Source: Lentisphaerae bacterium GWF2_50_93 (GTDB lineage Bacteria; Verrucomicrobiota; Lentisphaeria; Victivallales; GWF2-50-93). Taken from it: DNA of 64,000 bases. The notes below the pieces were generated by a model. The model worked only from the letters and a program-made list of their open reading frames with translations, was not told where the DNA came from and made no database searches. The first letter of the stretch is position 1, and every line of letters starts with the position of its first letter. Both the position numbers and the translations under genes were made by a program. This document shows, in pieces, positions 5,789 through 52,592 of the stretch. Where the stretch lies: contig MHBI01000088.1 of the NCBI GenBank assembly GCA_001804815.1, forward strand, positions 12,224 through 76,223, read 5' to 3'.

Positions 5789-5808
5789 AAAATCATACAT
5801 AGACCAGA

Positions 5809-21569: not shown

Positions 21570-21591
21570 TCCGATAATGGAGGACTTTGAT

Positions 21592-24500: not shown

Positions 24501-27500
24501 CTCGTGCTACGAATATTCCGGTCTGCAGAGAATCACTGTTAGGCGTGACATTGGAAAAGACGGTTCAGCGAGCGTAGATGTCTATATCACCGACATCACA
24601 GCAACACATGCAGCCGATTACACTGTCAGCGCCGGTGCTGGACTTGTCACCTATGACGCCGTCAACAGCAGATACAAGGTAACTCTTTCATGGGCCGATC
24701 AAGTATCAACTTCAAAGTATTTCGATATTAATGTCGTTGAGGATGATCTCATCGAAGGAGACGAAACAGCGAGCATCACTTTGAATAATCCCGTCGGAGC
24801 AGCCCTTGGCGCCCAGAGCTCCGCGGAATTCACGATTATCGACAATGACTATCTGCTTGAAATTCATCCGCTGGTTGCTGAAGGCGGCAATGGGGTTGCA
24901 AGCGCTGTGCCCGTTTCCTCTTCCTCCGATACAACGACCGCCGATATTTCAGCTGTACCAGACGCCAATTACCATTTCGTGAACTGGACAGCGGTAGGAC
25001 CTGTCACTTTCACCAATGCGAATTCCGCAAATACAAAAATAGCCTACAAAGGCAGCTCTATCGTCACTGCGAACTTCGCACATGATTCGGTCGCACTCAC
25101 CATGGCAGTTGCCGGTGAAGGAGCAGCGACGGCGACTCCAGTTTCGGGACCTGCGATTGTCGCACCTGCATCTGGAAATACTGATAATGTGACCGCGATT
25201 TCGCTCGAAGCCATTCCCGACGGAGGAAGCAGCTTCGCCGGATGGTCGGTAATTGGAAACGCAACAATCGATGACACCGAGGATCCCACTACCAACCTGA
25301 CCCTCACAGGCGAAGACGGCTCCGCAGTCACTGTCACGGCAAATTTCATCGTAGGATCGGCAACTGTCCTCCCTCTCGTCGCTGGCGAAGCCACGGAGCC
25401 CGGGATAACCGACAGCACGGTCGGTGGCATTAAGATTTACAAGGTCACAGTTGATCCCGGCAACTCCCTTCTTGAAGTTACGACATCAGGAAATGGAGAT
25501 TGTGATCTGTATGTGCGTTATGCGGCAGCCCCTACCCTTTCAACGTATGACAAGCGTTCAACGGGAGTCGGAGCTTCGGAAAAGGTCAGGATTGAGGATC
25601 CGACCCCTGGCACCTGGTACATAATGCTACATGCATATGCCGCATATGACACTGTAAGCCTCGATGTGAAAGTCGGAGACTTTGCTATTGGACAGCCGGG
25701 GCCTATTACAGTTACGCCGTCGACTGCCAAGGTCCAGCTCGATTGGCCGGCTGTTGCAGCAGGTTCGCCCACCGCGTATGAAATCTACAGGGCGGAACTG
25801 GATGAAATAGAGGTTGCCACAAAGATCGCAGAGGTCGATGCGGCTGATCCGCTGACATATGACGATGTGTTCACCGCTGCGACACCCAATTATGATTATT
25901 ATTACTGGGTGAGGGCTGTAACAGCCACCGATGAAGGAAAATTCAGCGAATCGGCGCATGCGACTTTGACAGATGGATTGTTCACTCTGTTAGTAAGTGG
26001 AACGGAGAAAAAACTTATTTCCGGCGCTGCTGGTTCCATACAGATCTTCAAGATAAAGGTTCCTGCCGCCCAGACTCTCCTCGAGATAAAGATAAAAGGG
26101 TTAGTCGGCGACTGCGATTTCGATGTCGTTGCTCCTAACGGCGACACCGTGAAACGCGGGGTAAAAGGGAGCAGCAACGAACTTGTGCAGATAACCGGCA
26201 ATCCTCTTGCCACCGACTTCTGGACTATCCATCTCTACGGTAAAACTGCCTATTCCGGCCTGGGCCTGATGGCGAAATACAGCAAGCTGATCGCGGTGCC
26301 TGCAGCGCCAGTGGTCTCCGCAAGCGACGGGATGTTCGATGACAGGATACTCCTGAACTGGAAGACCGTGCCAGGAGCGACAAGATATGAAGTCTTCAGG
26401 AACAAGACAAAGCTCCCGCCAGATCCCATCAACGATAAGATCGCGGAAGTCGCCGATATAACATACGAAGACAACTCAAAGGAAGTGATCGTAGACGATA
26501 TTCCTGGAACTTTGTTCTATTATTTTGTCACCGCTAAAAATACTGTAGGCACCAGCAAACCCAGCGCCAGCAATTCCGGATTCATCATGAAGGCACCGCT
26601 TCTTACTCCCGCAGCGCCATTGGCTTCGGACGGCATTTACTTTGACAGGATCAACGTCAAATGGACAAAGGTGATTGGGGCGACATCATACCAGGTTTAC
26701 CGTACTGAAACCCTTACCGCACCTCTTATTGGCGTAGATACACCGGCTGGCGAAACAACAGCCCTGTTCCTTGACGATTTCGCAAAGGACTTCGTCCCGC
26801 AGGCTGGCGGGGTTCTGAACGTGAATAATTACTATTACTGGATAGCCGCGAAGAACCAGAATGGGACAAGCCCCATAAGCAAGGTAAATTCCGGATTCCT
26901 TTCCAAGAAGGGTCCCGCCACGATAACCGCCAGCAACGGCACATATTCAGACAGGGTTGTAGTGACCTGGGCGGCAGTGCCTGGAGCAACTGCCTATGAC
27001 GTGTACCGCTGCACCGACATCAAGTTCATTCTGGGACCGTCAACGGTCGGCAACGCAGTCGAGGGCTTGGAATTCGAGGATGTGCCGCCTGTCTCGGACA
27101 CCGTCTACTACTACAAAGTGAAGGCGAAGTACAACGCCAAATACGACAGCAACTTCTGTCTGGGCACCGCGATTGGCAAGATGACGACAGGCGCATCCAG
27201 CCCTACGGTGGAACTGGCGCTGGACAACAATACCGATTCCGGCAGCATTACCGACAAACTCAAGGGCAGTTCGCTTTACTACTCGGTCGACGTTCCTTAC
27301 GGAACCACAAGGATTGTTGCCACGCTCAGCGGAACTCCACCGCCTGTCGGAACCACCAACGACTGTGATCTGTTTGCGAAGTTCGCAAACTTTCCGACAA
27401 AGGCGTCCTACAGCGCAAAAGGCATTGAAAATCTCGTGGCCAAAACTGAAATCCTAACAGTGAGCAATCCTGCCGCAGGCACCTGGTATTTCCTGCTATA

Positions 27501-28512: not shown

Positions 28513-28513
28513 A

Positions 28514-28658
28514 AGTAGGTACGAGCTTCAGCCTGTACCATGAATTCCGCGTCTGCTGCAGTAGCGCTTTGACGTAGCTGAAAGCTTGTACATGGAAAGA
28601 TTCCCTACAGCTCCATTATGAAATTGAAGAATGGTACAGGCTGAAGCCCGTACCTACT
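28514..28658. repeat. MITE-like element (AGTAGGTACG.GCTTCAGCCTGTACCAT termini), long copy
   Basis: 28514 agtaggtacgagcttcagcctgtaccat pairs with atggtacaggctgaagcccgtacctact ending at 28658, a terminal inverted repeat of about 28 bp. It starts 2 nt after the M6 stop codon. Confidence 0.85.
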
Positions 28659-28785
28659 TGAAGAACAGATCTCACCTGCAACTTTGTACTTCCGAATGTA
28701 GCGTTCGCCGCCTCGGAGAAGATCTTAAGATTCTTGCCCGGGACGGGCAACCCTGCATCAGAAATACAAACACAACCGGGACGTT

Positions 28786-28903
28786 GTAGTAGCGCATGTT
28801 TGCGCGTTTTTCGGTTTTAAAATGGAGCGCCGGTCTCCAGGCCGGCTTCTTGCCGACCTGGAGGTCGGCGTTCCTTTAAGAACGCGCAAACATGCGCTAC
28901 TAC
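28786..28903. repeat. MITE-like element (GTAGTAGCGCATGTTTGCGCG termini), complete copy
   Basis: gtagtagcgcatgtttgcgcg (28786-28806) is the perfect inverted repeat of cgcgcaaacatgcgctactac (28883-28903). Internal hairpins are ccggtctccaggccgg and gccgacctggaggtcggc. The right two-thirds recur at 50261-50359. Confidence 0.9.
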
Positions 28904-28921
28904 AAACGAATCACACCCGGT

Positions 28922-29117
28922 GTCATCCCAGAGGATGACGGCCTAATGGATTTATGGATTGCTGGATTATTGGGTTTGAGTTCAAGATAACACAAAAGCC
29001 ATGGAGATGCATGAGGATTATAGGAAAAGCATTTCGGATAATTTATCCATGCTGTTTTTGCTCTTATGTCTTTGAAACCCAACCATCCAGAAATCCATGA
29101 ATCCAATAATCCATGAA
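28922..29117 (+). repeat. Full-length 8-bp-periodic GGAT hairpin element, copy B
   Basis: A hairpin gtcatcc-caga-ggatgac lies at 28922-28939. The left arm is ggatttat ggattgct ggattatt gggtttga. The core spans about 28970-29080. The right arm is ccaaccat ccagaaat ccatgaat ccaataat ccatgaaa. It is in inverted orientation relative to copy A. Confidence 0.85.
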
Positions 29118-29218: not shown

Positions 29219-32200
29219 ATGCATACTCCATTTTCGTCCCGATGCACAACCGCGCTGGCCAGTCTTCTTTTATTCATCTCCTTCACATCCGCACAGGCGG
29301 AGGATAAAAGCCTCGGAGCCTGGACGGCGAAAGACCCGAGTACGGCCTTGTATAGAATCTACGGCATGGCATTCGGGAACAACACATATGTCATAGCCGG
29401 TTACAACGGCGGCACATGTAAGAGTTTCATTGCAAATTCTCCTGACGCGACAACCTGGACCCTGAGATCCACGGGAAGCACATCCTTGGAATTCAACTCC
29501 GTGATTTTCTCAAAAGGCCGTTTCATCGCGGTATGCGGACAGCCTGATTCAAAGACCGCCAGGATCTGGACATCGGACACCAATGGCAACACCTGGGTGA
29601 GCAGGAGCTCCAATATCACTGTCGCAGGCAAACTTAATGCAGTTGCTTCGGACGGCAATGGCAGACTTATCGCCGCAGGAGCGAATGCTGATGGCGACGG
29701 ATGGCTGACGGTTTCAACTGACAACGGAACAACATGGTTTACCCCCGAGGGTGCGTCCTTCCCTGGAGAAACATTCTACGGTGTAGGATATGCCATCGGA
29801 AACTGGTATGCGTTCTCGACGTCGGGGACCTACAAGTCAACAAACGGGGGAACTGCCTGGGCTTCAGTGGCGGGATCTCCTGCCGTAGACGACAAAGGAT
29901 ATAAAGTCGCTTCAAACAAGACAACGGTCGTTGTCGCCTCATCAACTGGCCCCATATGGTCGAAGGATGGCGGAGCGACGTGGTATGCAGGCACGTATGC
30001 AAATGGGTTTACAGGTTCCCTGACATCGGCGGCATCAAGCGTAGTCTATGCGGATGGCACATTCGTTCTTGCCGGACGCAACTCGGGAGAGGCATGGAGC
30101 TCTGAAACCGGCCAGACCTGGAAGAGATGGACACTTCCCTCAACTACCACTTACGCCTTATGCTACGGAAAAAAATCGTTCTGGTGCGGAGGCGCGTTTG
30201 CCATGCACAACATACCAACGATTTCAAAATCCCCTTCCTGGTTCAAGGCGCGTCTCGGATGCAGCAGCGATTATCCATACACAATATTCGATGCCGAGGA
30301 CGGACCGCCGAACCGCATAGGCCTTCCGCAGTACAGGGTCAACACCGCATCTTTGAACCTTGTCCTCGAAAGCACATTGTTCTACGTCAAGGCCCTGGGA
30401 TCACCCATCAATTTTAAGCTGGTCTACAATTCCAGGCCGACCGATGACGACAATTCGACCATAGGGCCGTTCGGCAAGAACTGGCGCTTCCGCTACGAGT
30501 CGGTGGTTGGACGATTCGGACAGGATGCTATACTCGTCAAGGGCGGAGGCAGAAACTTCGCCTTCACCACGCCCAAGGGAGAGAACCTCGACACCTACTC
30601 GGGCCCTGACGCGGAATTGATTCTCGATCCTCCGGACGGGACATTTGACAAACTTGTCTACAAGCATGCGGTTCCGAGCTTCGAACTTACTATGAAATCC
30701 TCGCATCTCAAATACATATACGGGACCAAGGGCAGTACGGCAGACGTAAACGACAGCCTCTTCTATCTTTCCGCCATCGAGGACCAGTTCGGGAATACGA
30801 CAACCCTGTCCATAGACGCCCCCACCGGGCGGATCGACTCCATAGCAAATGGCGGCAGAACCTTCTCATTCACCTACACTGGCTCACTTTGCAGCGGAAT
30901 CAGCATTCCCGACGGGCGTTCCGTCGACTTCACCTACGACGCACACGAAAACCTCACCAGCATAACGGACATGAGGGGCTACCAGGGAACATATGCCTAC
31001 GACGCTGCTAATCTTGGGTTCCTCATGTCAATGTCGACGGCAGGCAAGACCACGACTTTCACTTATGCGGACAGACCGGGCTACAACGAAGCAGGCACCG
31101 TCGAGAACTTGGGCGACAAATATCTCAAGTCGCTCACCCGCCCGAACGGGAGCATTACGAAATATGAGCTCCTGGACGGCGGAGACACGGTGAAGCGCAC
31201 ATCACCGTCGGGAGAGATCACTCTAATATCCAACGAGGAAGGGCAGACTACTTCCGTGAAGGATCCGCTTGGAAACGTGCGCAACATAACGTTCAACGAC
31301 GCAAAGCTCCCCTCCTCTGTCACCGACGAAAAAGGCGGGGTCTATACCTACGAATATGTCAACGGCAACATGACCAGGCAGACGGATGCAATGGGGAGGT
31401 CGACCTCTTATGAATATGATGCCAGCAGCAACCTCATAAGAACCACCAACGCCCTTGGAAAATCCTGGACATATACCGGCTATGCGAACTATCAGCCTGG
31501 CAAGATCACCACACCCATGCTCTATGAGACAAATTTCACCTATTGGCCAAATGGGCGCATGAAGGACATAACCGATGCACGCGGTAATAAAACGTCCTTC
31601 ACCTATGACCCGTACGGCAATCTTGATACTGCGACATCCCCGGCTCCGGTCAGTGCAGTAACGGATCTCACCTACGACCCGCAGGGGTTCAGGTGCACCA
31701 AGATGAAAGATGCCAGCTTGAACGAAAAGGCACTGGAATGGGATGCCAACGACCGCCTCCTGTCCATCACCTATGATACCGTCGCAGACCTGCCTGCATA
31801 CACAAACACATACAATGCTTTCGGACAGACAGGATTCACAGACGAGCTTGGAAAATCCAGCACAGTGGTCCGTGACGAACTCGGATTCATAACATCAGTG
31901 ACGAATCCACTCGGACATGTCACCCGGAAGGAATACGACGCTGATCTACGGCCTTCGAAGACCATTGATCCCCTGGGCAGGGCGACATCGACCTCGTATG
32001 ACAATGCTGGGCGTCCAATCCTTTTTACCGACGCCAGGGGATTCAAGATAGTAAAGGAATATGACAGCACCGGAAACCTCGTCTCCTTCAAGGACAAGAA
32101 CGGTGCGGAAACGAAATACACCTATGACACTAACGGCAGGCTCGTGTCAACCTCTGATCCTCTCAAAAAAACCTACACGATCACCCGCGATATCATCGGA

Positions 32201-33982
32201 AGGATATCCTCGACCACGAACGCAAGGCTCCAGGTCATAGGCTATGAATATGACGACAATGGCCTCTTAAAAAAGAAGACGTTGACAGGGGCTGCGACAC
32301 CACTCGTTGAAAACACGCTCGACGAAAATGGAAACATCACAAAACAAATCGATTCCTGGGGAAGCACCCCCGCCACCGCCACGCAATATGCGTATGACAC
32401 CAACAACCGCGTGACAAGCATAACATACCCGGATGCGAAAACCGTGGCCTTGACTTACAACAATACAGGAAACATCGCCACCATAACCTATCCTGACGGT
32501 CTTGTCGCCACTTACACTTACGACACCTTCAACCGCCAGCCTGTACCGTCCATCCTCAAGAACAATCCCGGAACTGAGATTGCAGGACAGAGCCGATCGA
32601 CAAATGCCATTACGGACGTCACGCTTTCCGGAGCAGCTTCCGCCAATTTCACACTTTCGTATGACAAGCGCGGCAGGATCAGCACATTGACCCGACCGGA
32701 TAATTTCACAAAATCCGACTATACCTATGACGATGCGGGAAGGACAACCAGGTTGGTCCACAGCAAGACCGGAGGATCTGCGGCAGTGGATTTCACTGTT
32801 GAATGCAGTCCTAACGCCGTAGGCAACCTTTCCTCGGAAAACTTCTGCGGAGCATCTTATTACCAGTCCGCCCAGACGCCTTCATCCATGGCCCTTGCCT
32901 ACAATGCAGCTGGACAGCTCATGAAAAAAGGAGTGGAGGCCTGCATAAGCGATGCGGACGGCAATCTCACCGATCTCGGGGCAGGAACCGTGAAATGCAC
33001 ATATGACGCTGAAAACAGGCTCACCAGGATGGTCAGGAAAGCAGGCACGACCACTGACAACACCTACAACGCCAGCGGTCTCCGCGTCAAGCGCGTAATC
33101 GGCAGCGAGACAATCTTCTATCATTACCTGCCATCAGGCACCCTTCTTTTCACGACGGACGGAAGCGGGACGGTGATGGACAGGCATGTTTTCGCGGGCG
33201 GGACTCTTCTTGCGACTCTTAAAGCTTCGGGAGCTCTGATCCACTATTACGGCGACCTGCAGGGCAACGCAAGGTTCATAGCAGACAATTCCGGTGCCGT
33301 TCTTGTGCAATACGACTACCTGCCATATGGACAGGTCGGCACGAACAAACTCGGAATTAACGATGCTCTGATAGACAATAATCCTTTCACCATGAATGGC
33401 ATCCTCGGAGTCCAGGACGAAGGCGACGGCATATTCTGCATGGGGAAACGTTTCTACGAGGCGGCTTCGGCTCGCTTCCTCAGCCGGGATCCCCTTGGTT
33501 TTACAGCAGGCTCGAATCTTTATGCGTTTGGGAGGAACAATCCGATAATCTATGCGGATCCTACCGGAAAAATACCTGTAGTTGTGCCTCTTGTAATGGC
33601 AGGTGCGGGCTTCATCTACTGGTGCATGAGTTCGTCAAAAAGTCACGAAGAAGCAAATGCCGAAGCTGCTGCCATCAACGCCAAATACCGGGCAGAAGAG
33701 CTTAAAAAGGCAAAAGAACTGAATGATCGCCTCAAAGGATATCACGGCCGTGAGAGGGAAATGATGATGGAGGCGGAGGGGCTTCACTCATCCCAGTCTA
33801 ATGCCGTCGATGCATTGCATGAAGGTGTTGACCAGGCAGCCAATCGCATGGGAGAGGTTGGAGAGATTGGCGCGAACACGGCTCAAAACTTGATTACTGG
33901 AGGAGCTGTAGGCGCAGGATTGGATGCTGGCGGCGCTATTTCAGAAGAGATTGAAAACCAGGGTGCCGAGCAGGAGGAATAA
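29219..33982 (+). CDS. Rhs/YD-repeat protein 1 (1587 aa): signal peptide, BNR/Asp-box propeller, YD-repeat shell, Rhs core, 136-aa tip
   Basis: The signal peptide is ...LASLLLFISFTSAQA. Asp-box motifs include STDNGTTW, SKDGGATW, SDTNGNTW and SETGQTW. The Rhs entry region is LPQYRVNTASLNLVLESTLFY. There are many YD repeats (FTYDAHENL, YEYDASSNL, KEYDSTGNLVSFKDKNG...). The Rhs-associated core ends RFYEAASARFLSRDPLGF...NNPIIYADPTGK (DPTGK at 33557-33571). Confidence 0.92.
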   Translation: MHTPFSSRCTTALASLLLFISFTSAQAEDKSLGAWTAKDPSTALYRIYGMAFGNNTYVIAGYNGGTCKSFIANSPDATTWTLRSTGSTSLEFNSVIFSKGRFIAVCGQPDSKTARIWTSDTNGNTWVSRSSNITVAGKLNAVASDGNGRLIAAGANADGDGWLTVSTDNGTTWFTPEGASFPGETFYGVGYAIGNWYAFSTSGTYKSTNGGTAWASVAGSPAVDDKGYKVASNKTTVVVASSTGPIWSKDGGATWYAGTYANGFTGSLTSAASSVVYADGTFVLAGRNSGEAWSSETGQTWKRWTLPSTTTYALCYGKKSFWCGGAFAMHNIPTISKSPSWFKARLGCSSDYPYTIFDAEDGPPNRIGLPQYRVNTASLNLVLESTLFYVKALGSPINFKLVYNSRPTDDDNSTIGPFGKNWRFRYESVVGRFGQDAILVKGGGRNFAFTTPKGENLDTYSGPDAELILDPPDGTFDKLVYKHAVPSFELTMKSSHLKYIYGTKGSTADVNDSLFYLSAIEDQFGNTTTLSIDAPTGRIDSIANGGRTFSFTYTGSLCSGISIPDGRSVDFTYDAHENLTSITDMRGYQGTYAYDAANLGFLMSMSTAGKTTTFTYADRPGYNEAGTVENLGDKYLKSLTRPNGSITKYELLDGGDTVKRTSPSGEITLISNEEGQTTSVKDPLGNVRNITFNDAKLPSSVTDEKGGVYTYEYVNGNMTRQTDAMGRSTSYEYDASSNLIRTTNALGKSWTYTGYANYQPGKITTPMLYETNFTYWPNGRMKDITDARGNKTSFTYDPYGNLDTATSPAPVSAVTDLTYDPQGFRCTKMKDASLNEKALEWDANDRLLSITYDTVADLPAYTNTYNAFGQTGFTDELGKSSTVVRDELGFITSVTNPLGHVTRKEYDADLRPSKTIDPLGRATSTSYDNAGRPILFTDARGFKIVKEYDSTGNLVSFKDKNGAETKYTYDTNGRLVSTSDPLKKTYTITRDIIGRISSTTNARLQVIGYEYDDNGLLKKKTLTGAATPLVENTLDENGNITKQIDSWGSTPATATQYAYDTNNRVTSITYPDAKTVALTYNNTGNIATITYPDGLVATYTYDTFNRQPVPSILKNNPGTEIAGQSRSTNAITDVTLSGAASANFTLSYDKRGRISTLTRPDNFTKSDYTYDDAGRTTRLVHSKTGGSAAVDFTVECSPNAVGNLSSENFCGASYYQSAQTPSSMALAYNAAGQLMKKGVEACISDADGNLTDLGAGTVKCTYDAENRLTRMVRKAGTTTDNTYNASGLRVKRVIGSETIFYHYLPSGTLLFTTDGSGTVMDRHVFAGGTLLATLKASGALIHYYGDLQGNARFIADNSGAVLVQYDYLPYGQVGTNKLGINDALIDNNPFTMNGILGVQDEGDGIFCMGKRFYEAASARFLSRDPLGFTAGSNLYAFGRNNPIIYADPTGKIPVVVPLVMAGAGFIYWCMSSSKSHEEANAEAAAINAKYRAEELKKAKELNDRLKGYHGREREMMMEAEGLHSSQSNAVDALHEGVDQAANRMGEVGEIGANTAQNLITGGAVGAGLDAGGAISEEIENQGAEQEE

Positions 33983-34203
33983 GGTAATTCAAAATCACTG
34001 CCGTCCAATGGATGATTGGATGACCCGCCTTCGCTGGGAAGCTTTTTTTGGGTTGCGGATCTTTTTGGCTCAAAAAAGAATCTTCCACAACGCGCCGAAT
34101 GCGAATTTTTAGAGGTTCCCAGAATTTACTGGACTTTCTCCTCCTTTTAGGATAAGATTAACTTCGTTGCGAAAGCGGTAATTCAATCCTCTCTGGAGGG
34201 AAT

Positions 34204-37200
34204 ATGATTACTTCATGGGGTTCACGGCTCCAAACGGCCATCGCCGGACTCATCCTATTCTCAATATTCGCATCAGCCCAGGCAAGCGACACGCTCGGGG
34301 CATGGACAGCGAAAAATCCCGGGCTCAGCCTTGACGGGAATTACCAGATTTATGGCATGGCATACGGCAACAACACCTATGTGATTGTCGGAAAAAGCAA
34401 CAGCACAGGCAAGGCTTTCACAGCCAATTCCACTGATGGGACGCACTGGACCCTGAGAGGTGTTGCAAGCGAATCTGAGATCTTCAACTCGGTTATTTTC
34501 TCCAAGGGCCGTTTCATTGCAGTATGCACAAAACCGGCTACCGGCAGCGCCCGGATCTGGACGTCCGACAACAATGGCGGCACCTGGACGCCCAGGAGTT
34601 CCGACCTTCTTGTGGACGGCAGTTTGAATGGAGTCGCCGGTGACGGCAACGGCAAACTGGTTGCCGTCGGTGAAATCACCGATGTCTGGAATGGATGGAT
34701 CACTTGTTCATCGGACAATGGCAACACCTGGAGCGTTGTCCGCGACGGAGCAGTCTACAAGACGTTTCCAACGAAATTCTTTGGCGTAGGATATGCACTC
34801 GGCAATTGGTATGTGCTTGGATCAAACGGAGTTTATAAGTCGAATGGGATCGACTGCACGGCTTGGACCGACCCGGTGCCTGATTCCTCGCAGTTCTATA
34901 CGCAGAGCGACGACCTGCCGGGTTATAAGTTCGCTTCGAACCAGACAACGATTGTCGCGGCTTCGCTGTCCGGCCCCAAATGGTCGGACGACAATGGCGC
35001 CAACTGGAGCGATGGCGCACCGGCGCCGGGTTTCGAAGCAGTAGCCTCCCTGTACAGCTGGACTTCAAGCGTGGTTTATGCGGAAGGCCTGTTCGTCGTT
35101 GCGACACGCCGCGACGGGGATGTCTGGACTTCCGAGGATGGCCGGACATGGGAGAGGCGGACGCTGCCGACGGCGGATGAGACAAACGCGCTCTGCTACG
35201 GGAATAAATCATTCTGGTGCGGCGGCCTGTCGGAGACAATTGCAGTATCCGGGCCATGGCTCAAGGCCCGGATCGGCGGCAGTACGGATTTCCCATATAC
35301 GCTGTTTGACGCCCAGGACGCCCCTCCGAACCACATCGGCCTTCCACAGTACCGGGTCAATACCGCATCACTGAACCTTGTCATGGAAGGCACTCTTTTC
35401 CATATGAAGACCTTGGGCGCGTCGATCAACCTCAAGCTGGTCTATAATTCGCAGCCCTGTGCGGACGATGCGACAGACATCGGGCCGTTCGGCAAGAACT
35501 GGCGGTTCCGTTACGAGTCAGTTGTCGGACGCTCCGGCAAGAATGCCAGGCTGGTCAATGGCGGCGGCAGAAGCATGACATTCACCACTCCCAACGGTGA
35601 GGATCTCGGAACTTATGCAGGTCCTGAAACAGCATTGACCCTGAAATCTCCGGAAGGCATCTATGACAAGCTTGTCTACAAATATGCGGTTCCGAGCTTC
35701 GAACTTACCTTGAAAGCCTCCCATCTGAAATACACTTATGCCGTAACGGACAGCAACTCAGGCGGCAGCCAGTTCCATCTCTCCAGCATCTCGGATCAGT
35801 TCGGCAATACGACGACTCTCAATATCGACCCAACCAGCGGCGCCGTCACCAAGATAACAGATTCATCCTTACGGGAAATCAACTTTACCTACAATCCCAA
35901 CCCTGCAACGGGACTTTGCACCGGAATGACAATGCCGGGACGATCGGTCAGTTTCAGTTATACCGGAAAAAATCTCGCTGGCATTACTGACGCAGAGGAA
36001 TTTTCAGGCACGTATGCCTACGACTCCAACGGATTTATCACCTCGATGACGACAGCAGGCAAAACCACCACGTTCACATACAAGGACAGGGTCGGCGTCA
36101 GCAATGGCGATAAATCCCTTGCCACGGTCACGCGTCCCGGTGCATACGGCACGATCAAATACGAAATCCTGGAGGACGGCAAGACCGTAAAACGCACGGA
36201 TCCGCTTGGTCAGTCGACGATTATTTCCAGTTCGGGAGGCCAGACGACATCAGTCAAGGATCCGCTGGGGAATGTGCGGAGCATCGCCTTCAGCGGAGCG
36301 AAGCTTCCGGAAACTTTCACGGATGAGAAAGGCGGCGTCTGCAGATACGAATACGATTCCCGCGGCAACATGACCAGGAAGACCGACGCCCTCGGAAATA
36401 TTACAAATTATTATTACGATCCTGCGACTGACGATATGACCAGGATGGAAGACGCCTTCGGCTATCCATGGGTCTATGCCTATTCTAATTGCCAGCCGAC
36501 AAGTATAACTACACCCGTAGGAAACATCACCTATTTCGCCTATGATGGACAGGGTCGTCTTACAACCCTCACCGACGCACGCGGCACTGACACGGATTTC
36601 ACCTATGACAAGGGAGAGGTGGCTACAGTTACAAGCCCTGCTTCAGGCACGACAACTTTTGCATACGATGTTGCATCACGCTGCATCTCAATCCAGGACG
36701 CAAATCTCAAGACAAAATCCCTCTCCTGGGACAATAACGACCGTCTGGAAACCGTAACCTATAATTCCGTTGCTGGACCACCGTCATACTTGAACGGCTA
36801 CTCCGCTTTTGGACAGACCTCCTTCCAGGACGAACTTGGCGAATGGACATATGCCACCCGCGACGACCTGGGATCCATCACAACAATCCGCGATCCCCTT
36901 AACAACGTCAACCAGATGGAATACGATCTTGACAACCGGCTGACCAAGACCATCGATCCCCTGCTGCACTCGAGAGCGACTTCCTACGACAGCGCAGGAC
37001 GACCGACAATATTCACGGACGCCAGAAGCTACAAGGTCGTGCGCGAATACGACAGCACCGGCAACCTAGTATCCTTCAGGGATTCGAATAATTCCACCAC
37101 GACCTATAAATACGATGCGAACGGCCGTCTGCTGAGTGTCATGGATCCGCTCCTGAAGTATAACACCATGACCCGGACGAAGACAGGTCAGATCGCCTCC

Positions 37201-38973
37201 ACCAAAAACGCACGCAGCCATACTATAAACTATACATATGATTTTGATGGACGGCTCCAGGAAAAAGCACCGGCGGCACCAGCACCGGCGACCAAGGTCG
37301 CGTATGTGCGGGATCCCAACGGCAACGTCACAACACGGACCGACACATCGGAGGGAACTGATTTCATCACAGGCTATGTATATGATTCAAGCAATCGTAT
37401 CACGAAAATCACCTATCCGGACGGCAAAGTGGTTGATTTGACATGGCTTGCAGGCGGACAGCTCGCCAGCATCGCCTATCCCGACGGCCTCGCCGTCACC
37501 TACAGCTATGACAACTTCAACCGTATTCCAATACCTTCGGTGCTGAAGAACAATCCCGGAACCGATCTTGTGGGCGAAAGACGTTCCACGAATGCAATTA
37601 CCAAGGTCGCTGTCACGGGCGCCGTCAACGATGATTATGATTTCACTTACAATGACCGTGGGCAGATCACCCAGATGCTGCGGCCGAACGGGACACAGTC
37701 CGATTATGCCTATGACAATGCTGGACGCCTCATCCAGATCAAGCACAGCGTGACAGCGGACGGCACAAGCCTTTTCCTTGCCGACTACGGCATGGATGCC
37801 GCGGGAAATGTCATAAGGGAACAATCTGTCGGAACCGCATACTATCAGGGCAATGATCTGCCGGAAAAGATGGCGATGCTCTACAACACGGCCGGGGAAC
37901 TCACCAAGAAGGGTGCCAAGGCCTGTACGAGCGATGCCGACGGAAATCTCACGGATCTCGGAGCCGGAACGACGAAATGCACATATGACGCCGAGAACAG
38001 GCTCACGGCAATTGTCAGGAAAATAAATGCGACAACGACAGAGACCATTGTCAACACGTTCGATTCAGACGGCTACCGCATCAGGCGAGTCAACGGCGCC
38101 GAGACGATCAATTATCACTACCTGCCATCCGGCATCCTGCTATTCACTACAGATGATGCAGGTGTCATCATTGATCGCCATATCTATGCCGGAAATTCAC
38201 TTCTCTCGACCTATAAGGCCAATGGGGATTGGCTTGACTACTACGGGGACCGGCAGGCGAATGTGAGATTCATCGCCGATGCCACAGGCGCCGTGCTTGT
38301 GGAATATGGATACCTTCCCTACGGGCAGTTTGACAGCCTCATGACGGGGGTGAACGATGGAGCAATAGACAAGAATCCCTTCACCTTCAACGGCATGCTG
38401 GGCGTCCAGGATGAAGGAAGCGGCCTGTTCTACATGCAGCAGCGCTTCTATGACGCCTCCACCGCCCGGTTCCTTGGCAGGGATCCTCTCGGGTTCTCGG
38501 CGGGCAACAACCTTTACGCTTTCGGCAAGAACAACCCCATTATCTATGCCGATCCGACCGGAAGGATTCCGGTATTCATCGTAATTCTTGGACTAGTATC
38601 ATTTGCCCACTATGGCCTGGGAATCTTTGAAAGCCATGACAATGCAAATGCGAATGCTGCGGAAATCAACGCCAAATATCGTCAGAAGGAGCTGGAAGCA
38701 AAAAAGAAATTCAATGAGACATTTAAAAGCAATCCCAAGGATTTCAATCAGAAATTGGCCAATGCTCAAAAAACAAGCAACATGTATGAGCGCGGATTGA
38801 GCAGTTTGTTTGAAACTACCGAACAGGTCGGCAACCGCGCCGGCGAAGCGGCCGAGATTGCCGGGAGTACGGCTGAAAACGTGGCTCTGGGCGATTATCT
38901 TGGCACAGCCTGGGATGCCATCAAGGCCACCTACACCGACTTTACAAATGAAAGCGCAGAAACGGGTAAATAA
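34204..38973 (+). CDS. Rhs/YD-repeat protein 2 (1589 aa), paralogue of Rhs1 with a different 135-aa tip
   Basis: GGAGGG lies before the ATG at 34204. The signal peptide is ...LILFSIFASAQA. Asp-boxes include SSDNGNTW, SDDNGANW and SEDGRTW. The same LPQYRVNTASLNLVMEGTLFH region and YD repeats are present. The core ends RFYDASTARFLGRDPLGF...NNPIIYADPTGR (38551-38565). Confidence 0.92.
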   Translation: MITSWGSRLQTAIAGLILFSIFASAQASDTLGAWTAKNPGLSLDGNYQIYGMAYGNNTYVIVGKSNSTGKAFTANSTDGTHWTLRGVASESEIFNSVIFSKGRFIAVCTKPATGSARIWTSDNNGGTWTPRSSDLLVDGSLNGVAGDGNGKLVAVGEITDVWNGWITCSSDNGNTWSVVRDGAVYKTFPTKFFGVGYALGNWYVLGSNGVYKSNGIDCTAWTDPVPDSSQFYTQSDDLPGYKFASNQTTIVAASLSGPKWSDDNGANWSDGAPAPGFEAVASLYSWTSSVVYAEGLFVVATRRDGDVWTSEDGRTWERRTLPTADETNALCYGNKSFWCGGLSETIAVSGPWLKARIGGSTDFPYTLFDAQDAPPNHIGLPQYRVNTASLNLVMEGTLFHMKTLGASINLKLVYNSQPCADDATDIGPFGKNWRFRYESVVGRSGKNARLVNGGGRSMTFTTPNGEDLGTYAGPETALTLKSPEGIYDKLVYKYAVPSFELTLKASHLKYTYAVTDSNSGGSQFHLSSISDQFGNTTTLNIDPTSGAVTKITDSSLREINFTYNPNPATGLCTGMTMPGRSVSFSYTGKNLAGITDAEEFSGTYAYDSNGFITSMTTAGKTTTFTYKDRVGVSNGDKSLATVTRPGAYGTIKYEILEDGKTVKRTDPLGQSTIISSSGGQTTSVKDPLGNVRSIAFSGAKLPETFTDEKGGVCRYEYDSRGNMTRKTDALGNITNYYYDPATDDMTRMEDAFGYPWVYAYSNCQPTSITTPVGNITYFAYDGQGRLTTLTDARGTDTDFTYDKGEVATVTSPASGTTTFAYDVASRCISIQDANLKTKSLSWDNNDRLETVTYNSVAGPPSYLNGYSAFGQTSFQDELGEWTYATRDDLGSITTIRDPLNNVNQMEYDLDNRLTKTIDPLLHSRATSYDSAGRPTIFTDARSYKVVREYDSTGNLVSFRDSNNSTTTYKYDANGRLLSVMDPLLKYNTMTRTKTGQIASTKNARSHTINYTYDFDGRLQEKAPAAPAPATKVAYVRDPNGNVTTRTDTSEGTDFITGYVYDSSNRITKITYPDGKVVDLTWLAGGQLASIAYPDGLAVTYSYDNFNRIPIPSVLKNNPGTDLVGERRSTNAITKVAVTGAVNDDYDFTYNDRGQITQMLRPNGTQSDYAYDNAGRLIQIKHSVTADGTSLFLADYGMDAAGNVIREQSVGTAYYQGNDLPEKMAMLYNTAGELTKKGAKACTSDADGNLTDLGAGTTKCTYDAENRLTAIVRKINATTTETIVNTFDSDGYRIRRVNGAETINYHYLPSGILLFTTDDAGVIIDRHIYAGNSLLSTYKANGDWLDYYGDRQANVRFIADATGAVLVEYGYLPYGQFDSLMTGVNDGAIDKNPFTFNGMLGVQDEGSGLFYMQQRFYDASTARFLGRDPLGFSAGNNLYAFGKNNPIIYADPTGRIPVFIVILGLVSFAHYGLGIFESHDNANANAAEINAKYRQKELEAKKKFNETFKSNPKDFNQKLANAQKTSNMYERGLSSLFETTEQVGNRAGEAAEIAGSTAENVALGDYLGTAWDAIKATYTDFTNESAETGK

Positions 38974-39118
38974 GAGGAAGCATCGATGACGTCAAAGTCT
39001 TTTATATGGAGTATGTTAAATTGATGTTAAACTATACAACACAGCTGGATTTTTCCATCCCGGATGGTAGTGTTATCCACAGTGTTTCAAAATCAATTTA
39101 TCATGCTAGGGGGTCGGT

Positions 39119-42100
39119 ATGAAAATGTTTCGTCATCCGCGCATCTCGTCGCTGCTTTCAGCGCTTTTTTTCTTCTCCTTATTAACTTCAGTCCAGGCCG
39201 CCAGCGACAGCCTCGGGACGTTTACGGCGAAAAATCCCGGGCTCAGCACCACGGAAATCTATGATATCTACGGCATGGCCTACGGCAACAACACCTATGT
39301 AATTGTCGGGCAGAACTACATCACAGGAAAGGCTTTTACTGCCAATTCAACTGATGGCAAGACATGGACAATAAGATCATCAGGAAGCACATCTGCACTT
39401 TTCCATTCCGTAATTTTTTCAAATGGCCGTTTCATTGCCGTGTGCAAGCAGCCTGACTCGGGGAATGCCCGTATCTGGACATCCGATACCAATGGCAACT
39501 CCTGGGTGACCCGTAATACCGACAATGCCGGACTCATTGTTCCAGGTGGATTGCACGGCGTTGCTTCTAATGGCAATGGAAAACTCGTTGCCGTTGGAGG
39601 AACACCTTATCTGAGTGGATGGATGACCGTTTCAAACGACAACGGGACCACCTGGAGAGTTGTCCGCAACGGAGCCGGGACCGATTACGAGTCATTCCTC
39701 AATAAGTTATACGCTGTTGGCTATGCACTCGGAAACTGGTATGCTTTTTCCACATCAGGAACCTATCGATCAGACGATCCGGCTACGGCATCCTCCTGGA
39801 TCAGCGGCGGTCCGGCAGTTGACAATATCCAGATGCTGGGATATAAAGTCGCTTCAAATCAATCAACCATTGTTGTCGCCTCATCCACTGGTCCGAAATG
39901 GACGATAGACAATGGACTGACCTGGCATACCGGCACGCAGGCAAAAGGCTATGAAAGTGTAAGTTCCCTGACCGATGCCGCATCAAGCGTAGTTTACGCG
40001 GATGGTTATTTTGTCCTGGCAACCCGGGAACCCTATTACAACGGTGACGACTTCAAATATTACGCAGATATCTGGATCTCCGAAACCGGACGCCAATGGA
40101 AACGGTGGAGAACTGCACAATTAATGCACGACGCCGATTACACTTTTTCACTCTGCTATGCTAAAAGGGCATTCTGGTGTGGTGCATTGAGAGAAAGACT
40201 TTCGAAATCTCCTTCCTGGTTCAAGGCGCGTAACGGGTGCAGCTCCGATTATCCATACACAGTTTTTGATACCGAGGACGGCCCGCCGAACCGTATCGGG
40301 CTTCCGCAGTACCGTGTCAACACCGCATCGTTGAATCTGGTTCTTGAAGCCACTCTCTTCTATGCAAAAACACCTGCCGCACCTCTCAACTTCAAGCTCG
40401 TCTACAATTCCAAGCCCTGCGCAAACGGCGACACGTCGATCGGCCCGTTCGGCAAGAACTGGCGGTTCAGGTATGAGTCGGCAGTCGGCCGTTTCGGACA
40501 GGAGGCGCAGGTCATCGCCGGAGGCGGACGCAGCCACACTTTCGCGACGCCCAACGGAGAGGATCTTGAAACTGTCACCACCGACGTCACACTCAAGGCA
40601 CCGGACGGAATATTCGACGAGCTGAAGTACTATTACAACGGCGGAGTTTCAAGGTTCGAGCTGTCCCTGAAGTCATCGCATCTCACCTACATATATGGCA
40701 CCGCCGGCACAGGCCCCGACAATACCGGTCTTTTCTATCTCACCGGGATCACGGATCAGTTTGGCAAGACGACGACTCTGAACGTCAGCGCCGCCACCGG
40801 ACTGATCAACTGGATAGATGATCCTTCAACCCCGGCCCGCTCATTCACCTTCGCCTACAACGGCGAGAACCTTTGCACAGGAATTTCTATTTCCGGCGGA
40901 CGCTCCGTAGGTTTCTCGTACGATGCCGACAAGAATCTCATCGGCATCGATGACATGATGGACTACCACGGTTCGTACGCATATGATGAATATGGGTTCA
41001 TGACCTCGATGACTACGGCAGGAAAGACCAATACTTTCACATATGTTGACAGGCCCGGCTACGAGACCGATCCGATTGAAACCCGCGACAAATATCTCTC
41101 TTCCATCACCAGGCCCGGCGGAAAGAAGATCAAGTATGAGCTTCAGGACGAAGGTGAAACTGTCAAGCGCACTGATGCCGCCGGCGAGATAACCCTTTTT
41201 TCCAACAAGGACGGACAAACCACCAAAATAACCGACCCTCTGGGCAATATCCGCACGATCGAATATAATGGCGCCAAGCTGCCGGAAACTGTGACAGACG
41301 AAAAAGGCGGGGTGTTCACCTATAAATATGACGAAAAGGGAAACATGACCGAAAAGAAGGACGCCATGGACAACGTCACGGCCTGCGAATATGATTCCGA
41401 CAGCAACGTCACTAAAGTCACAAACGCCCTGGGCAAGTTCTGGGACTACACTTATAACACGAAGTACCAGCCCCTGACCATCACCACACCTCTCGGCAAC
41501 GACACTACCTTTACCTATGTTGGCAAGAATCTTACCAACATCAACGATTCCAGAGGCAATGATACTTCCTTTGGATATGACACCTACGGCAATCTCATTT
41601 CGATATCACCGTCCACGTCATTCACGTACACCGACAAATTCCACTGCGATTTCATCACGGACGCCAATGGCAAGATTAAGGCAATCGCCTGGGACAACAA
41701 CGACCGCATTACGACGGTAACCTATACCTCCGCCGGCGGCGCTTCGTATACCAACACCTATAACGCCTTCGGCCAGATTAATTTCACGGATGAACTTGGT
41801 CAGGAAACTGCGATTGTCCGCGACGAACTCGGCTACATCACATCGATCACCGACCCGCTTGGAAACATAAGCCAGACCGAATACGATGCAGAAAGCCGTC
41901 CTATCAAGAAAACCGATCCTCTGGGCAGGATTACCTCGACAACCTACGACAAGGATGGGCGTCCGATAGTATTCACCGACTCCAAGGGCTATACAATCAC
42001 CCGCAGCTATGATGGAGGCGGGAACCTCATTTCCTTCAAGGACAAGAACAGTTCGGAAACGACATTCTCATATGACGCGAACAACAGGCTTGTCGGCACA

Positions 42101-43945
42101 ACCGACCCCCTCAAGAAAATCTCCTCCATAACTCGTGATGCGATTGGACGGGAAGCGACCATCACAAATGCGCGCGGACAGACCGTCACCTGCTCCTATG
42201 ATGACGACGGAAGGCTTTCCGGCAAAACCTCCAGCGTCGCCGGTTCCACGCCGATCGCATATACCCGCGATGGCAACGGCAACATACTTACTCAGACAGA
42301 TGCCTGGGGCACGACAACATACACATATGACGACTACAACCGAATCCTGTCCATAACCTATCCTGACACGACAGCTGTAGCTCTGACATGGAAAGCCGGT
42401 GGACAAATCGATACCATAACCTATCCGGGCATTACCGCCCTTGCCGTATCCTATACCTACGACAACTTCAACCGATATCCTGTCCCCAGCATCCTCAAAA
42501 ACAATCCCGGCACCGAACTTTTCGGCGAAAGCCGCACCACAAATGCCGTTACGGGAATTGCAGTGACCCTTGGCGGAGCACCGCATGGCAACTATGCCAT
42601 GACCTATAACAGCCGTGGTCAAATCACCCAGATGACCCGTCCAAACGCAACACAGTCGGACTACGCATATGACAGTTGTGGGCGTGTCACACAGATCAAG
42701 CACAGCGGTGGTAACAATGTCGACTTCACTGCCGACTATGCCTTCAATGCCGTTTCCAACGTCACTTCTGAAACCTTCTCCGGCGACTCCTATTATCAGG
42801 ACACAGAGCTTCCCCTCAAGATGGCTTTGACCTACAACATCGCGGGGCAGCTCACCAAAAAGGGCGCACAGTCCTGTATCAGCGATGCTGACGGGAACAT
42901 AACCGACATCGGCGCCGGGACAATCAAGAACACGTATGATGCCGAGAACAGGCTCATTCAGACCGTCCGGAAAATCGATGCCACAACAACAGAGACCATA
43001 AACAACACCTACAATGCGGCCGGACTCCGCGTAAAGAAGGAGATTGTAGGCGGAGACACGATAGTATATCACTATCTGCCCTCCGGAATCCTTCTTTACA
43101 CCACCAACGGGCTCGGAACGCTCATCGACCAGCATGTCTATGCAGGCAATGCGCTCGTCGCAACATATGATCCGCCTAATAATAAAGCCATCCAATATTA
43201 TGCCGACCGTCAGGCGCATGTCCGCCTGATAGCAGACGTCAATGGTGAAGTACTGGTAAAATACGATTACCTGCCCTACGGCCAGGTGGCCACATACAAG
43301 CTCGGTGTCAAAGATGAGGAGATCGACAAGAATCCCTTCACCTTCAATGGTGTCCTTGGAGTTCAGGACGAAGGGAACGGCGGATTCTACATGCAGCAGC
43401 GCTTCTATGATTCCTTGAGTGCGCGATTCCTTTCAAGAGATCCTCTGGGTTTGAATGCCGGAAACAATCTCTACGCCTTCGGAGGCAACAACCCAATGTC
43501 GAATGCCGACCCCACAGGAAAATTCATAGATCCCCTTTCCCTCGTTGTCTATGGCCTCGCAATAACGGCCGTAGTGGGGGCAACGTCTTATGCCGTTGAT
43601 GCGGTGAAATCCTCCATGGCTGATGTCAAAAAAGCTTCTGATGCCCGAGGTGACATGATTGAGTCATTCAAGAAGAACGGAGATACAGCTGAAAGCTGGC
43701 AGAAGCATGACAAGTCTGTTGACTTGACGCTGGATGCGAACGAAAATACAATGAGAAGGACTGGACAGGTCATAGTAAACACCGGCATAGAAGTCGGAAA
43801 GGCCCTGATTCCTGGAGCGAACACGCCTGCCGGGAAGATTGTCCAAGACATCGTTACAGACCAGATCGTGGACAATGCTATAAAAGAGCCACTCCTGGAT
43901 TCCATGGAAGCGCCGCAGCCACAACAAACCGAGGGAGGAGAATGA
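39119..43945 (+). CDS. Rhs/YD-repeat protein 3 (1608 aa), paralogue with a third distinct 140-aa tip
   Basis: The signal peptide is ...LFFFSLLTSVQA. Asp-boxes include SNDNGTTW and SDTNGNSW. LPQYRVNTASLNLVLEATLFY and YD repeats are present. The core ends RFYDSLSARFLSRDPLGL...NNPMSNADPTGK (43508-43522). The stop TGA at 43943-43945 overlaps the ATG at 43942. Confidence 0.92.
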   Translation: MKMFRHPRISSLLSALFFFSLLTSVQAASDSLGTFTAKNPGLSTTEIYDIYGMAYGNNTYVIVGQNYITGKAFTANSTDGKTWTIRSSGSTSALFHSVIFSNGRFIAVCKQPDSGNARIWTSDTNGNSWVTRNTDNAGLIVPGGLHGVASNGNGKLVAVGGTPYLSGWMTVSNDNGTTWRVVRNGAGTDYESFLNKLYAVGYALGNWYAFSTSGTYRSDDPATASSWISGGPAVDNIQMLGYKVASNQSTIVVASSTGPKWTIDNGLTWHTGTQAKGYESVSSLTDAASSVVYADGYFVLATREPYYNGDDFKYYADIWISETGRQWKRWRTAQLMHDADYTFSLCYAKRAFWCGALRERLSKSPSWFKARNGCSSDYPYTVFDTEDGPPNRIGLPQYRVNTASLNLVLEATLFYAKTPAAPLNFKLVYNSKPCANGDTSIGPFGKNWRFRYESAVGRFGQEAQVIAGGGRSHTFATPNGEDLETVTTDVTLKAPDGIFDELKYYYNGGVSRFELSLKSSHLTYIYGTAGTGPDNTGLFYLTGITDQFGKTTTLNVSAATGLINWIDDPSTPARSFTFAYNGENLCTGISISGGRSVGFSYDADKNLIGIDDMMDYHGSYAYDEYGFMTSMTTAGKTNTFTYVDRPGYETDPIETRDKYLSSITRPGGKKIKYELQDEGETVKRTDAAGEITLFSNKDGQTTKITDPLGNIRTIEYNGAKLPETVTDEKGGVFTYKYDEKGNMTEKKDAMDNVTACEYDSDSNVTKVTNALGKFWDYTYNTKYQPLTITTPLGNDTTFTYVGKNLTNINDSRGNDTSFGYDTYGNLISISPSTSFTYTDKFHCDFITDANGKIKAIAWDNNDRITTVTYTSAGGASYTNTYNAFGQINFTDELGQETAIVRDELGYITSITDPLGNISQTEYDAESRPIKKTDPLGRITSTTYDKDGRPIVFTDSKGYTITRSYDGGGNLISFKDKNSSETTFSYDANNRLVGTTDPLKKISSITRDAIGREATITNARGQTVTCSYDDDGRLSGKTSSVAGSTPIAYTRDGNGNILTQTDAWGTTTYTYDDYNRILSITYPDTTAVALTWKAGGQIDTITYPGITALAVSYTYDNFNRYPVPSILKNNPGTELFGESRTTNAVTGIAVTLGGAPHGNYAMTYNSRGQITQMTRPNATQSDYAYDSCGRVTQIKHSGGNNVDFTADYAFNAVSNVTSETFSGDSYYQDTELPLKMALTYNIAGQLTKKGAQSCISDADGNITDIGAGTIKNTYDAENRLIQTVRKIDATTTETINNTYNAAGLRVKKEIVGGDTIVYHYLPSGILLYTTNGLGTLIDQHVYAGNALVATYDPPNNKAIQYYADRQAHVRLIADVNGEVLVKYDYLPYGQVATYKLGVKDEEIDKNPFTFNGVLGVQDEGNGGFYMQQRFYDSLSARFLSRDPLGLNAGNNLYAFGGNNPMSNADPTGKFIDPLSLVVYGLAITAVVGATSYAVDAVKSSMADVKKASDARGDMIESFKKNGDTAESWQKHDKSVDLTLDANENTMRRTGQVIVNTGIEVGKALIPGANTPAGKIVQDIVTDQIVDNAIKEPLLDSMEAPQPQQTEGGE

Positions 43946-43947
43946 CC

Positions 43948-52237: not shown

Positions 52238-52244
52238 AATCTCC

Positions 52245-52577: not shown

Positions 52578-52592
52578 AAAGGGGATTAAGTT

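Follow-up and report, generated by a model that had tools for sequence, protein, structure and literature searches.

The window analyzed here is a stretch of 64,000 nucleotides from contig MHBI01000088.1 of Lentisphaerae bacterium GWF2_50_93. It contains three tandem genes for Rhs proteins, followed by a gene for a protein with a signal peptide and a single YD repeat, called the partner protein below (Table 1). The three Rhs open reading frames (ORFs) are intact and lie in the same orientation. Each paralogue has the same layout: a signal peptide, a head of ~340-365 aa, a DUF6531 plug, a shell of ~900 aa of RHS/YD repeats, an Rhs core, and a tail of 136-141 aa. RHS_repeat (PF05593) was detected with Pfam in 10-12 stretches per protein, with E-values from 1e-54 to 1e-62, and TIGR01643 matched, too. 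The DUF6531 model covers the "LPQYRVNTASLNL" segment with 24.4-31.2 bits (Pfam cut-off 24.1), and the plug starts with the invariant IGLPQYRVNTASLNL in all three paralogues. The Rhs-associated core TIGR03696, whose end is at DPTG[KR], scored 54-59 bits (NCBIfam cut-off 32.5), and the core motif NPxxxxDPTG[KR] was read directly in the sequence. The entry segment, the YD repeats, and the core ending in DPTG[KR], which a sequence-only reading of this DNA had described, are thus confirmed by Pfam and NCBIfam.

Table 1. Positions of the Rhs array and of the partner gene in the window
Feature	Position	Strand	Remarks
Rhs paralogue 1	29219-33982	+	1587 aa; identical to NCBI "hypothetical protein DET40_20825 [Lentisphaeria bacterium]"
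Paralogue 1, signal peptide	29219-29299	+	
Paralogue 1, predicted propeller head	29300-30316	+	seven-repeat Asp-box-type; based on repeats read, AlphaFold, Foldseek, and profile search
Paralogue 1, DUF6531 plug	30317-30568	+	
Paralogue 1, YD shell	30569-33316	+	
Paralogue 1, Rhs core	33317-33571	+	
Paralogue 1, putative C-terminal cargo	33572-33982	+	137 aa past DPTG
Gap between paralogues 1 and 2	33983-34203	.	~222 bp; no credible ORF
Rhs paralogue 2	34204-38973	+	1589 aa; NCBI hypothetical protein DET40_20830 [Lentisphaeria bacterium]
Paralogue 2, signal peptide	34204-34284	+	
Paralogue 2, predicted propeller	34285-35334	+	
Paralogue 2, plug	35335-35586	+	
Paralogue 2, putative C-terminal cargo	38566-38973	+	core ends at 38565
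Gap between paralogues 2 and 3	38974-39118	.	~146 bp; no ORF
Rhs paralogue 3	39119-43945	+	1608 aa
Paralogue 3, signal peptide	39119-39199	+	
Paralogue 3, predicted propeller	39200-40294	+	
Paralogue 3, plug	40295-40546	+	
Paralogue 3, putative C-terminal cargo	43523-43945	+	core ends at 43522
Partner protein	43942-46905	+	987 aa; start overlaps paralogue 3 stop (ATGA)
Partner, signal peptide	43942-44025	+	
Partner, YD/RHS repeat	~44038-44157	+	single, ~38 aa, YTYDENNCLTKVIYSNGRTANFSYDKNGNLTNV; ~5 residues past the signal peptide

The N-termini of the paralogues show Arg/Lys in the n-region and a hydrophobic core, their positions -3 to -1 are A/V-Q-A, and they lack a lipobox Cys. In ~50 homologues, a conserved SLGTW strand comes directly after the predicted cleavage site. 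From these features, the paralogues look Sec-exported and appear to carry a cleavable type-I Sec signal peptide, in agreement with the sequence-only reading.

A search with the plug, shell, and core of paralogue 3 revealed ~55 clusters showing 40-70% identity across the full query, after which the score breaks from 766 to 506 bits at the next Rhs proteins. The named sources of this clade are metagenome-assembled genomes (MAGs) of Lentisphaeria and Victivallales, and one MAG of Prosthecobacter (Verrucomicrobiota), a genus with cultured species. The clade is uncharacterised and spans Lentisphaerota and Verrucomicrobiota. Nearly all members begin with a signal peptide whose cleavage site is next to SLGTW. 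An orthologue of paralogue 2 with the same C-terminus is present at locus L002 of a Victivallales MAG. Pfam domains PAAR, VgrG, and SpvB were found in none of the 120 closest Rhs relatives. The solved structures closest to the shell by sequence are Rhs proteins of type VI secretion systems (T6SS), namely RhsA (7q97), Tse5, and Tre23 (E = 1e-30 to 1e-21). The structures of teneurin-like proteins (TLPs) are more distant (E = 1e-11), and no structure of Tc toxins was found at E <= 1e-5 in this PDB sequence search.

The head of paralogue 1 is composed of seven repeats of ~41-53 aa. Six repeats close with degenerate Asp-boxes (SPDATTW, SDTNGNTW, STDNGTTW, STNGGTAW, SKDGGATW, and SSETGQTW), and the seventh ends in SKSPSW. 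The strict Asp-box, S-x-D-x-G-x-T-W, is present in 2, 1, and 1 copies in paralogues 1, 2, and 3. It is rarer than the four to five copies per protein counted in the sequence-only reading, although six boxes can be recognized in paralogue 1 in the degenerate form. BNR_2 of Pfam remained below the threshold (20.2 vs 31.4 bits, paralogue 1 only), and the BNR-type model F510_1955 of NCBIfam showed E ~1e-6, far under its cut-off. A profile of the three heads had no significant match to solved structures in the PDB sequence search, a word-index homology search with the propeller alone gave no matches, and there is no [FY]RIP motif in aa 1-366. The exhaustive profile search with the heads against 1.84 billion representatives gave 5178 matches, most of which were multi-propeller proteins with DUF6242, PSII_BNR, or Sortilin-Vps10. 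Only a handful of the 5178 had the same Rhs architecture. PF15902 was found in the sister protein P0169. None of the BNR/sialidase, Ycf48-like, and Sortilin-Vps10 models, against which a search with the N-terminal domain had been proposed, passes its cut-off, while the profile matches do reach carriers of PSII_BNR and Sortilin.

The AlphaFold model of the head, built from the three paralogues, is of moderate confidence only (pLDDT 67, pTM 0.71), and its last 50 residues are poor. Its Foldseek neighbours (E ~1e-8) are GH74 xyloglucanases, dispase autolysis-inducing protein (DAIP), Ycf48, sortilin Vps10, and sialidase-like propellers, so that the structure prediction, also proposed earlier, points to an Asp-box propeller. 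The head is predicted to be a divergent seven-bladed Asp-box-type propeller in the broad sense (Ycf48, sortilin-Vps10, GH74, DUF6242). The characters of GH33 sialidase-like propellers were not observed: no BNR/sialidase model passes, FRIP is absent, and there are seven repeats, not six. The head is replaced by NHL repeats in the clade member P0180 and by BspA-type LRR in P0182. Because NHL or LRR takes its place on the same shell clade, the propeller is considered to be a swappable binding head. Sialidase-like glycan binding by the head was rejected, as no model reaches its cut-off and other domains can take the place of the head. The structural neighbours include protein-binding propellers (DAIP, Ycf48, and sortilin) alongside glycosidases. 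The proposal that these proteins are glycan-targeted found no support with such a generic propeller, and no evidence points to glycans as the ligand of the head.

The partner protein has PPC, fn3, and CarboxypepD_reg domains after its YD repeat. It shares 39% identity (E = 1e-128) with the C-terminal 750-840 aa of the neighbouring M6 (InhA-like) peptidase, a protein of 2311 aa encoded upstream of the Rhs array (21577-28512). The stretch common to the two proteins contains these three domains and an uncharacterised C-terminal region. Judged by this similarity, the partner resembles a duplicate of the protease's non-catalytic stalk to which a YD tag has been attached.

A partner with a signal peptide and a single YD repeat is encoded after the Rhs gene, or after the last Rhs gene of the array, in 14 of 14 loci; these are the window and 13 related loci, one of which was seen as a gene table only. 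In the related loci, the partner starts -4 to +118 bp from the Rhs stop. The domains beyond the YD repeat are unrelated between partners: Ig-like domains in L001, L002, L020, L021, and L022 (two partners), He_PIG-type domains in L012, L016, L019, and L023, LRR_5 in L024, and another domain in L025. The partner is also kept in the variants with the NHL head and with the LRR head. Since the partner remains when the head changes, it most likely has to do with the shell. At L024 (8001-13627), the head of the Rhs protein is a BspA-type LRR_5, and the YD-tagged partner of 261 aa has the same LRR_5 type, the domains of head and partner being homologous. At L026 (6001-10764), an Rhs protein of 1357 aa from Desulfobulbaceae, with 32% shell identity, a different N-domain, and no propeller, is followed by a partner of 165 aa composed of a signal peptide, a YD repeat, and fn3. 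The association with a tagged partner thus extends beyond the clade of Lentisphaerota and Verrucomicrobiota.

The order of genes at L022 (10001-22514) is Rhs-partner-Rhs-partner. The C-termini of these two Rhs proteins are unrelated, one being the HExxH type (LKHESAHD) and the other a glycine-zipper hydrophobic type. Their partners are nearly identical beyond the signal peptide. The partner is therefore not a cargo-specific immunity protein, and this candidate was rejected. The possibility that the partner is a remnant of a decayed Rhs gene was also rejected, as the signal peptide and the tag are kept across the 14 loci with varied domains downstream.

The Arg and the two Asp residues of the Rhs aspartyl autoprotease (R-D-P-x-G ... 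D-P-x-G) are conserved in all 11 members checked. The two catalytic Asp residues, D1424 and D1447 in paralogue 1, are 23 residues apart, a Tc-like spacing which matches that of D651 and D674 in TccC3. After DPxG, the identity among the three paralogues falls to 17-32%, while the core keeps 71-73%. Across the clade (~55 members), the region past DPxG is 115-199 aa long, and its sequences can be sorted into at least nine types that are not related to each other. A given type can be met again on shells that have diverged, which, at the level of sequence, is a signature of polymorphic toxins. Hydrophobic or glycine-zipper helices, one to three in number, are present in most types. One soluble type carries the HExxH motif with a weak SprT-like match; it has no hydrophobic segment (Kyte-Doolittle (KD) maximum ~0.8). 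In the three proteins of the window, 19-26 aa right after DPTG constitute the sole strongly hydrophobic segment beyond the signal peptide (KD 1.8-2.2). The hydrophobic helix in paralogue 1 is IPVVVPLVMAGAGFIYWCM, and it is followed by a charged helical region; the remainder of the putative cargo is charged and predicted to be helical. The membrane-insertion free energy of the segment is 0 to +4.4, which is marginal, in a rough Hessa-type sum. Since these values are marginal, passage through Sec is plausible. The C-termini have no significant match in Pfam, NCBIfam, or the PDB sequence search, and no matches were obtained for the C-terminus of paralogue 2 in a word-index homology search.

There is no immunity gene between the paralogues, because the gaps hold no ORF. 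No immunity gene was found in the gene tables of the 14 loci either, and there is no third conserved gene around the cassette in any of them. The absence points either to a non-toxic role or to targets that are not sister cells. The wider clade with its polymorphic C-termini, the partner gene, the hydrophobic C-terminal cargo, and the lack of immunity genes had all been overlooked in the sequence-only reading.

No PAAR, prePAAR, VgrG, SpvB/TcdB, or other known trafficking domain was detected in the three proteins (Pfam, E <= 0.1). There are no T6SS or Tc genes, no vgrG, and no eag in the window or beside the 13 related loci, and the window has no TcA-sized neighbour with Tc domains. Our search of the literature on T6SS in Lentisphaerae turned up nothing usable. 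The idea that these proteins use Sec export instead of PAAR or T6SS trafficking domains fits these results. Its premise that Sec-routed Rhs proteins are exceptional was overstated; the class was listed in 2012 (PMC3482391), and WapA and TLPs (PMC13018210) are Sec-dependent.

The best reading, to which we give a probability of about 0.5, is that the array encodes a Sec- and type II secretion system (T2SS)-routed, two-component Rhs cage delivering mostly membrane-active cargo. The Rhs protein would be translocated by Sec first, and the cage would then fold around the self-cleaved cargo. The outer membrane would most likely be crossed by T2SS. The propeller would act as a swappable target-binding head. 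The partner could dock on the shell with its N-terminal YD repeat, by addition of a beta-strand as in TcB-TcC, and would supply a second module for adhesion or tethering. The three cargos in the window would be helical, membrane-inserting (permeabilising) peptides. Parallels for such cargo are the hydrophobic C-terminal domain of BiTLP, which resides inside the shell and is toxic only when sent to the periplasm (PMC13018210), and SGS1, whose transmembrane helices are encapsulated in an Rhs shell with propeller receptor domains (PMC9935623). YD proteins are also included in the outer-membrane proteome of Akkermansia (PMC4960237). As none of the copies comes with an immunity gene, the proteins probably do not target sister cells; other bacteria or eukaryotic grazers might be the targets. 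More tentatively, the YD repeat of the partner may be a docking tag that joins the beta-sheet of the cage in trans. The result would be a modular two-component Sec/T2SS particle without immunity proteins, in which heads and partner domains are exchanged as cassettes, with an architecture distinct from the T6SS, Tc, type VII secretion system, and teneurin-like ones and present in at least three phyla. This more specific proposal is possible but rather doubtful.

Several observations weigh against a toxin-delivering cage. Two of the three Rhs genes in the window have no partner of their own. No homologue of known function was found for the C-terminus, and its AlphaFold model is unusable (pLDDT 42.6). 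The missing immunity gene is unusual for polymorphic toxins, and the proteins may not be toxins at all. Moreover, where a Sec-translocated domain is directly followed by a hydrophobic helix, the helix could be a stop-transfer anchor, not cargo. In that case, the proteins would be non-toxic cages anchored in the envelope for teneurin-like adhesion or recognition. The segment after DPxG would stop in the inner membrane with the tail in the cytoplasm; the cage, the head, and the partner would form an adhesion or sensing assembly in the periplasm or at the surface, and autoproteolysis would free an empty cage. A signal peptide combined with one strongly hydrophobic segment is the classic type-I topology, the heads and partners are of adhesion types (propeller, NHL, LRR, Ig, and fn3), and no immunity gene is present. 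Metazoan teneurins are YD cages functioning as non-toxic receptors (PMC13018210). However, the helix starts 1-5 residues past the cleavage site, a position inside the shell in all solved Rhs structures, and it cannot be in the membrane as well. The positive-inside rule is broken by the flanking charges of paralogues 1 and 2, and the estimates of insertion free energy are marginal. Several C-termini of the clade, such as the HExxH type, have no hydrophobic segment, the C-terminal types have moved between shells, as is seen in polymorphic toxins, and the catalytic residues of the autoprotease are conserved. Such an anchored cage is thus unlikely.

It is also unlikely, to a similar degree, that these proteins are ordinary interbacterial polymorphic toxins of the Sec/T2SS route, with immunity encoded elsewhere or provided generically by the partner. 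The polymorphic C-termini with a sharp identity break at DPxG are what such toxins show, the partner sits where immunity genes normally lie, and Bcn-A of Xanthomonas is an Rhs bacteriocin of the supernatant that needs accessory ORFs (PMC7259588). Nevertheless, the partner, too, is a secreted protein and lacks a membrane segment, and its near-identity behind two unrelated C-termini at L022 does not fit cognate immunity. The window has three different C-termini for one partner, and the 14 loci offer no conserved third gene for the role. Delivery by T6SS or Tc machinery encoded elsewhere in the genome is very improbable. The closeness of the shell to T6SS Rhs shells among solved structures favors it, but loading onto VgrG/PAAR in the cytoplasm cannot be reconciled with a cleavable Sec signal peptide, which is conserved throughout the clade. 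The domains and genes of both systems are also missing from these proteins and from all loci inspected, and no Tc structure was among the matches of the shell at E <= 1e-5.

Among the systems described to date, the broad Sec-type class comes close. In Table 1 of Zhang, de Souza, Anantharaman, Iyer, and Aravind (2012), a signal-peptide/T2SS route is listed with RHS and beta-propeller repeats (PMC3482391). As far as that table describes the class, the clade shares the signal peptide as the sole trafficking determinant, RHS plus propeller repeats, and polymorphic C-termini. The class is defined there with adjacent immunity genes, whereas the clade has none and has a secreted YD-tagged partner instead. 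No mention of the head-plus-partner arrangement was found in the part of that paper available to us or in the literature searched.

BiTLP of Bacillus inaquosorum (PMC13018210; PDB 9pt5/9ifo) resembles the clade in its Sec signal peptide, its adhesion-type N-terminal modules, and its YD shell, which has a DPxG autoprotease. The cargo is small (~15 kDa) in both; in BiTLP, it is hydrophobic and acts from the periplasmic side to permeabilise membranes. TLPs can also be present in several copies per genome. They have an FN-plug, an NHL propeller between plug and shell, and a TIP domain, whereas in the clade the Asp-box propeller precedes the DUF6531 plug. No NHL domain was found between the plug (aa ~367-450) and the first YD repeats in the paralogues, and the TEN_YD-shell model gave only sub-threshold matches, in relatives. 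The shell is less similar to those of TLPs than to those of T6SS Rhs proteins. TLP operons contain cognate immunity genes, while the downstream gene in the clade encodes a YD-tagged protein common to unrelated C-termini. TLPs are not reported from Lentisphaerota or Verrucomicrobiota.

SGS1 of mosquitoes and its bacterial Rhs relatives (PMC9935623) have an Rhs/YD shell with beta-propeller and other receptor domains. The predicted transmembrane helices of SGS1 start right after the aspartyl-protease site and are stored in the shell, and there is no immunity protein. In contrast to the clade, SGS1 is a eukaryotic protein of 3364 aa with two propellers (one of which extends the chamber), a carbohydrate-binding module, and a lectin domain, and no trans-acting YD-tagged partner is known for it. 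The TcB-TcC cocoon of Tc toxins is formed by two polypeptides with joining YD beta-sheets, includes a propeller, cleaves itself at the Rhs core, and lacks an immunity gene. It is a precedent for docking of YD strands in trans. Tc toxins differ in requiring SpvB/TcdB N-domains and the TcA translocator, neither of which is present here, and in the placement of the propeller; moreover, the partner in the clade would give one repeat, not half a shell.

T6SS Rhs proteins (RhsA, Tse5, and Tre23) have the closest shells by sequence, the DUF6531 plug, and the same core motif. Unlike the clade, they have no signal peptide, and they have PAAR/prePAAR, linkage to vgrG, eag, and immunity genes, and cytoplasmic loading. 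WapA of Bacillus subtilis and Bcn-A of Xanthomonas perforans are YD/Rhs toxins that function without T6SS. WapA is Sec-dependent, and Bcn-A is found in the culture supernatant and depends on accessory ORFs (PMC7259588). Both come with cognate immunity genes, differ from the clade in their N-terminal domains, and lack a YD-tagged partner.

By its RHS repeats, Rhs core, and conserved catalytic residues, the clade is assigned to the Rhs core family. It also has the features given for the broad Sec-type class in the table cited above, except for the immunity gene. The defining features of T6SS Rhs proteins, Tc BC subunits, TLPs, and sialidase-type propellers are not found in it. A signal peptide in place of PAAR is not new in kind for Rhs proteins, with TLPs known since 2026. 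The partner of a signal peptide plus a single YD repeat, the cassette-like exchange of heads and partners, and the systematic lack of immunity genes appear to be unreported in the literature searched. Rhs cages have been studied almost only as T6SS effectors, as Tc subunits, and, recently, as TLPs. The clade would represent a further arrangement in poorly studied phyla, with Sec export, an exchangeable head, mostly membrane-active cargo, an obligatory partner, and no immunity gene. If the tag docks to the shell, it would explain the tethering or targeting of T6SS-independent Rhs cages. A signal peptide with one YD repeat would then be a simple genomic marker for such systems, and the tag would lend itself naturally to the attachment of domains to protein cages.

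The paralogue pairs show 55-63% amino acid identity and 61-67% nucleotide identity overall. At the amino acid level, the identity is 58-63% in the propeller, 70-74% in the plug, 55-57% in the shell, 71-73% in the core, and 17-32% in the tail. The best-conserved domains show 68-74% nucleotide identity; the value of ~80% given earlier for conserved DNA blocks was an overestimate. The longest exact run common to paralogues is 21-26 nt. Because of the low nucleotide identity and the absence of exact runs longer than 26 nt, the triplication is old, as had been proposed, and a recent duplication is ruled out. The identical three-gene array is present in another MAG at NCBI (GCA_003516325.1, contig DPCG01000084.1), in an assembly of a groundwater metagenome at ENA, and in a Logan assembly. 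Its presence in these three further assemblies rules out an assembly artefact, again in accordance with the sequence-only reading.

The regions 265-6795 and 59537-63975 of the window encode heparinase II/III-like, SASA-type acetylesterase, xylose-isomerase-like TIM barrel, PA14, and DUF5060/GH5-like proteins. The neighbours of the cassette, including carbohydrate-active enzymes (CAZymes), differ in every related locus, and therefore no functional link of the glycan genes to the Rhs proteins is indicated. If these genomes are rich in CAZymes, such adjacency would be unsurprising. An ORF of 4503 aa (7828-21339), whose sole Pfam match is DUF4347, encodes a giant, probably surface protein and heads a same-strand block of large secreted proteins.

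Three inverted repeats are located at 28513-29113, within the intergenic region of ~700 bp before the first Rhs gene. Their arms are 29 nt (97% complementary, 89 nt apart), 28 nt (96% complementary, 66 nt apart), and 14 nt. They could be terminators, repetitive extragenic palindromic (REP)-like elements, or regulatory hairpins. Rfam detected no RNA family in the window, including this repeat-rich 5' intergenic region, and the promoter/terminator scan was not above the shuffled expectation.

Downstream of the partner, 51607-56061 contains a VapB/PIN toxin-antitoxin pair and a PadR regulator, which were called in the identical stretch of L013/L014. After PadR, a VIT-domain protein of 884 aa overlaps an exosortase (EpsH) gene. 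The two appear to form a PEP-CTERM-type sorting module with no relation to the Rhs proteins, none of which has a PEP-CTERM end. Two 4Fe-4S proteins (300 and 368 aa) lie between two IclR-type regulators, and a protein of 787 aa with Fer4/QueG-like matches is encoded further on (47256-51364 and 56875-59238). These 4Fe-4S and Fer4/QueG-like proteins may be reductive-dehalogenase-like or related redox enzymes.

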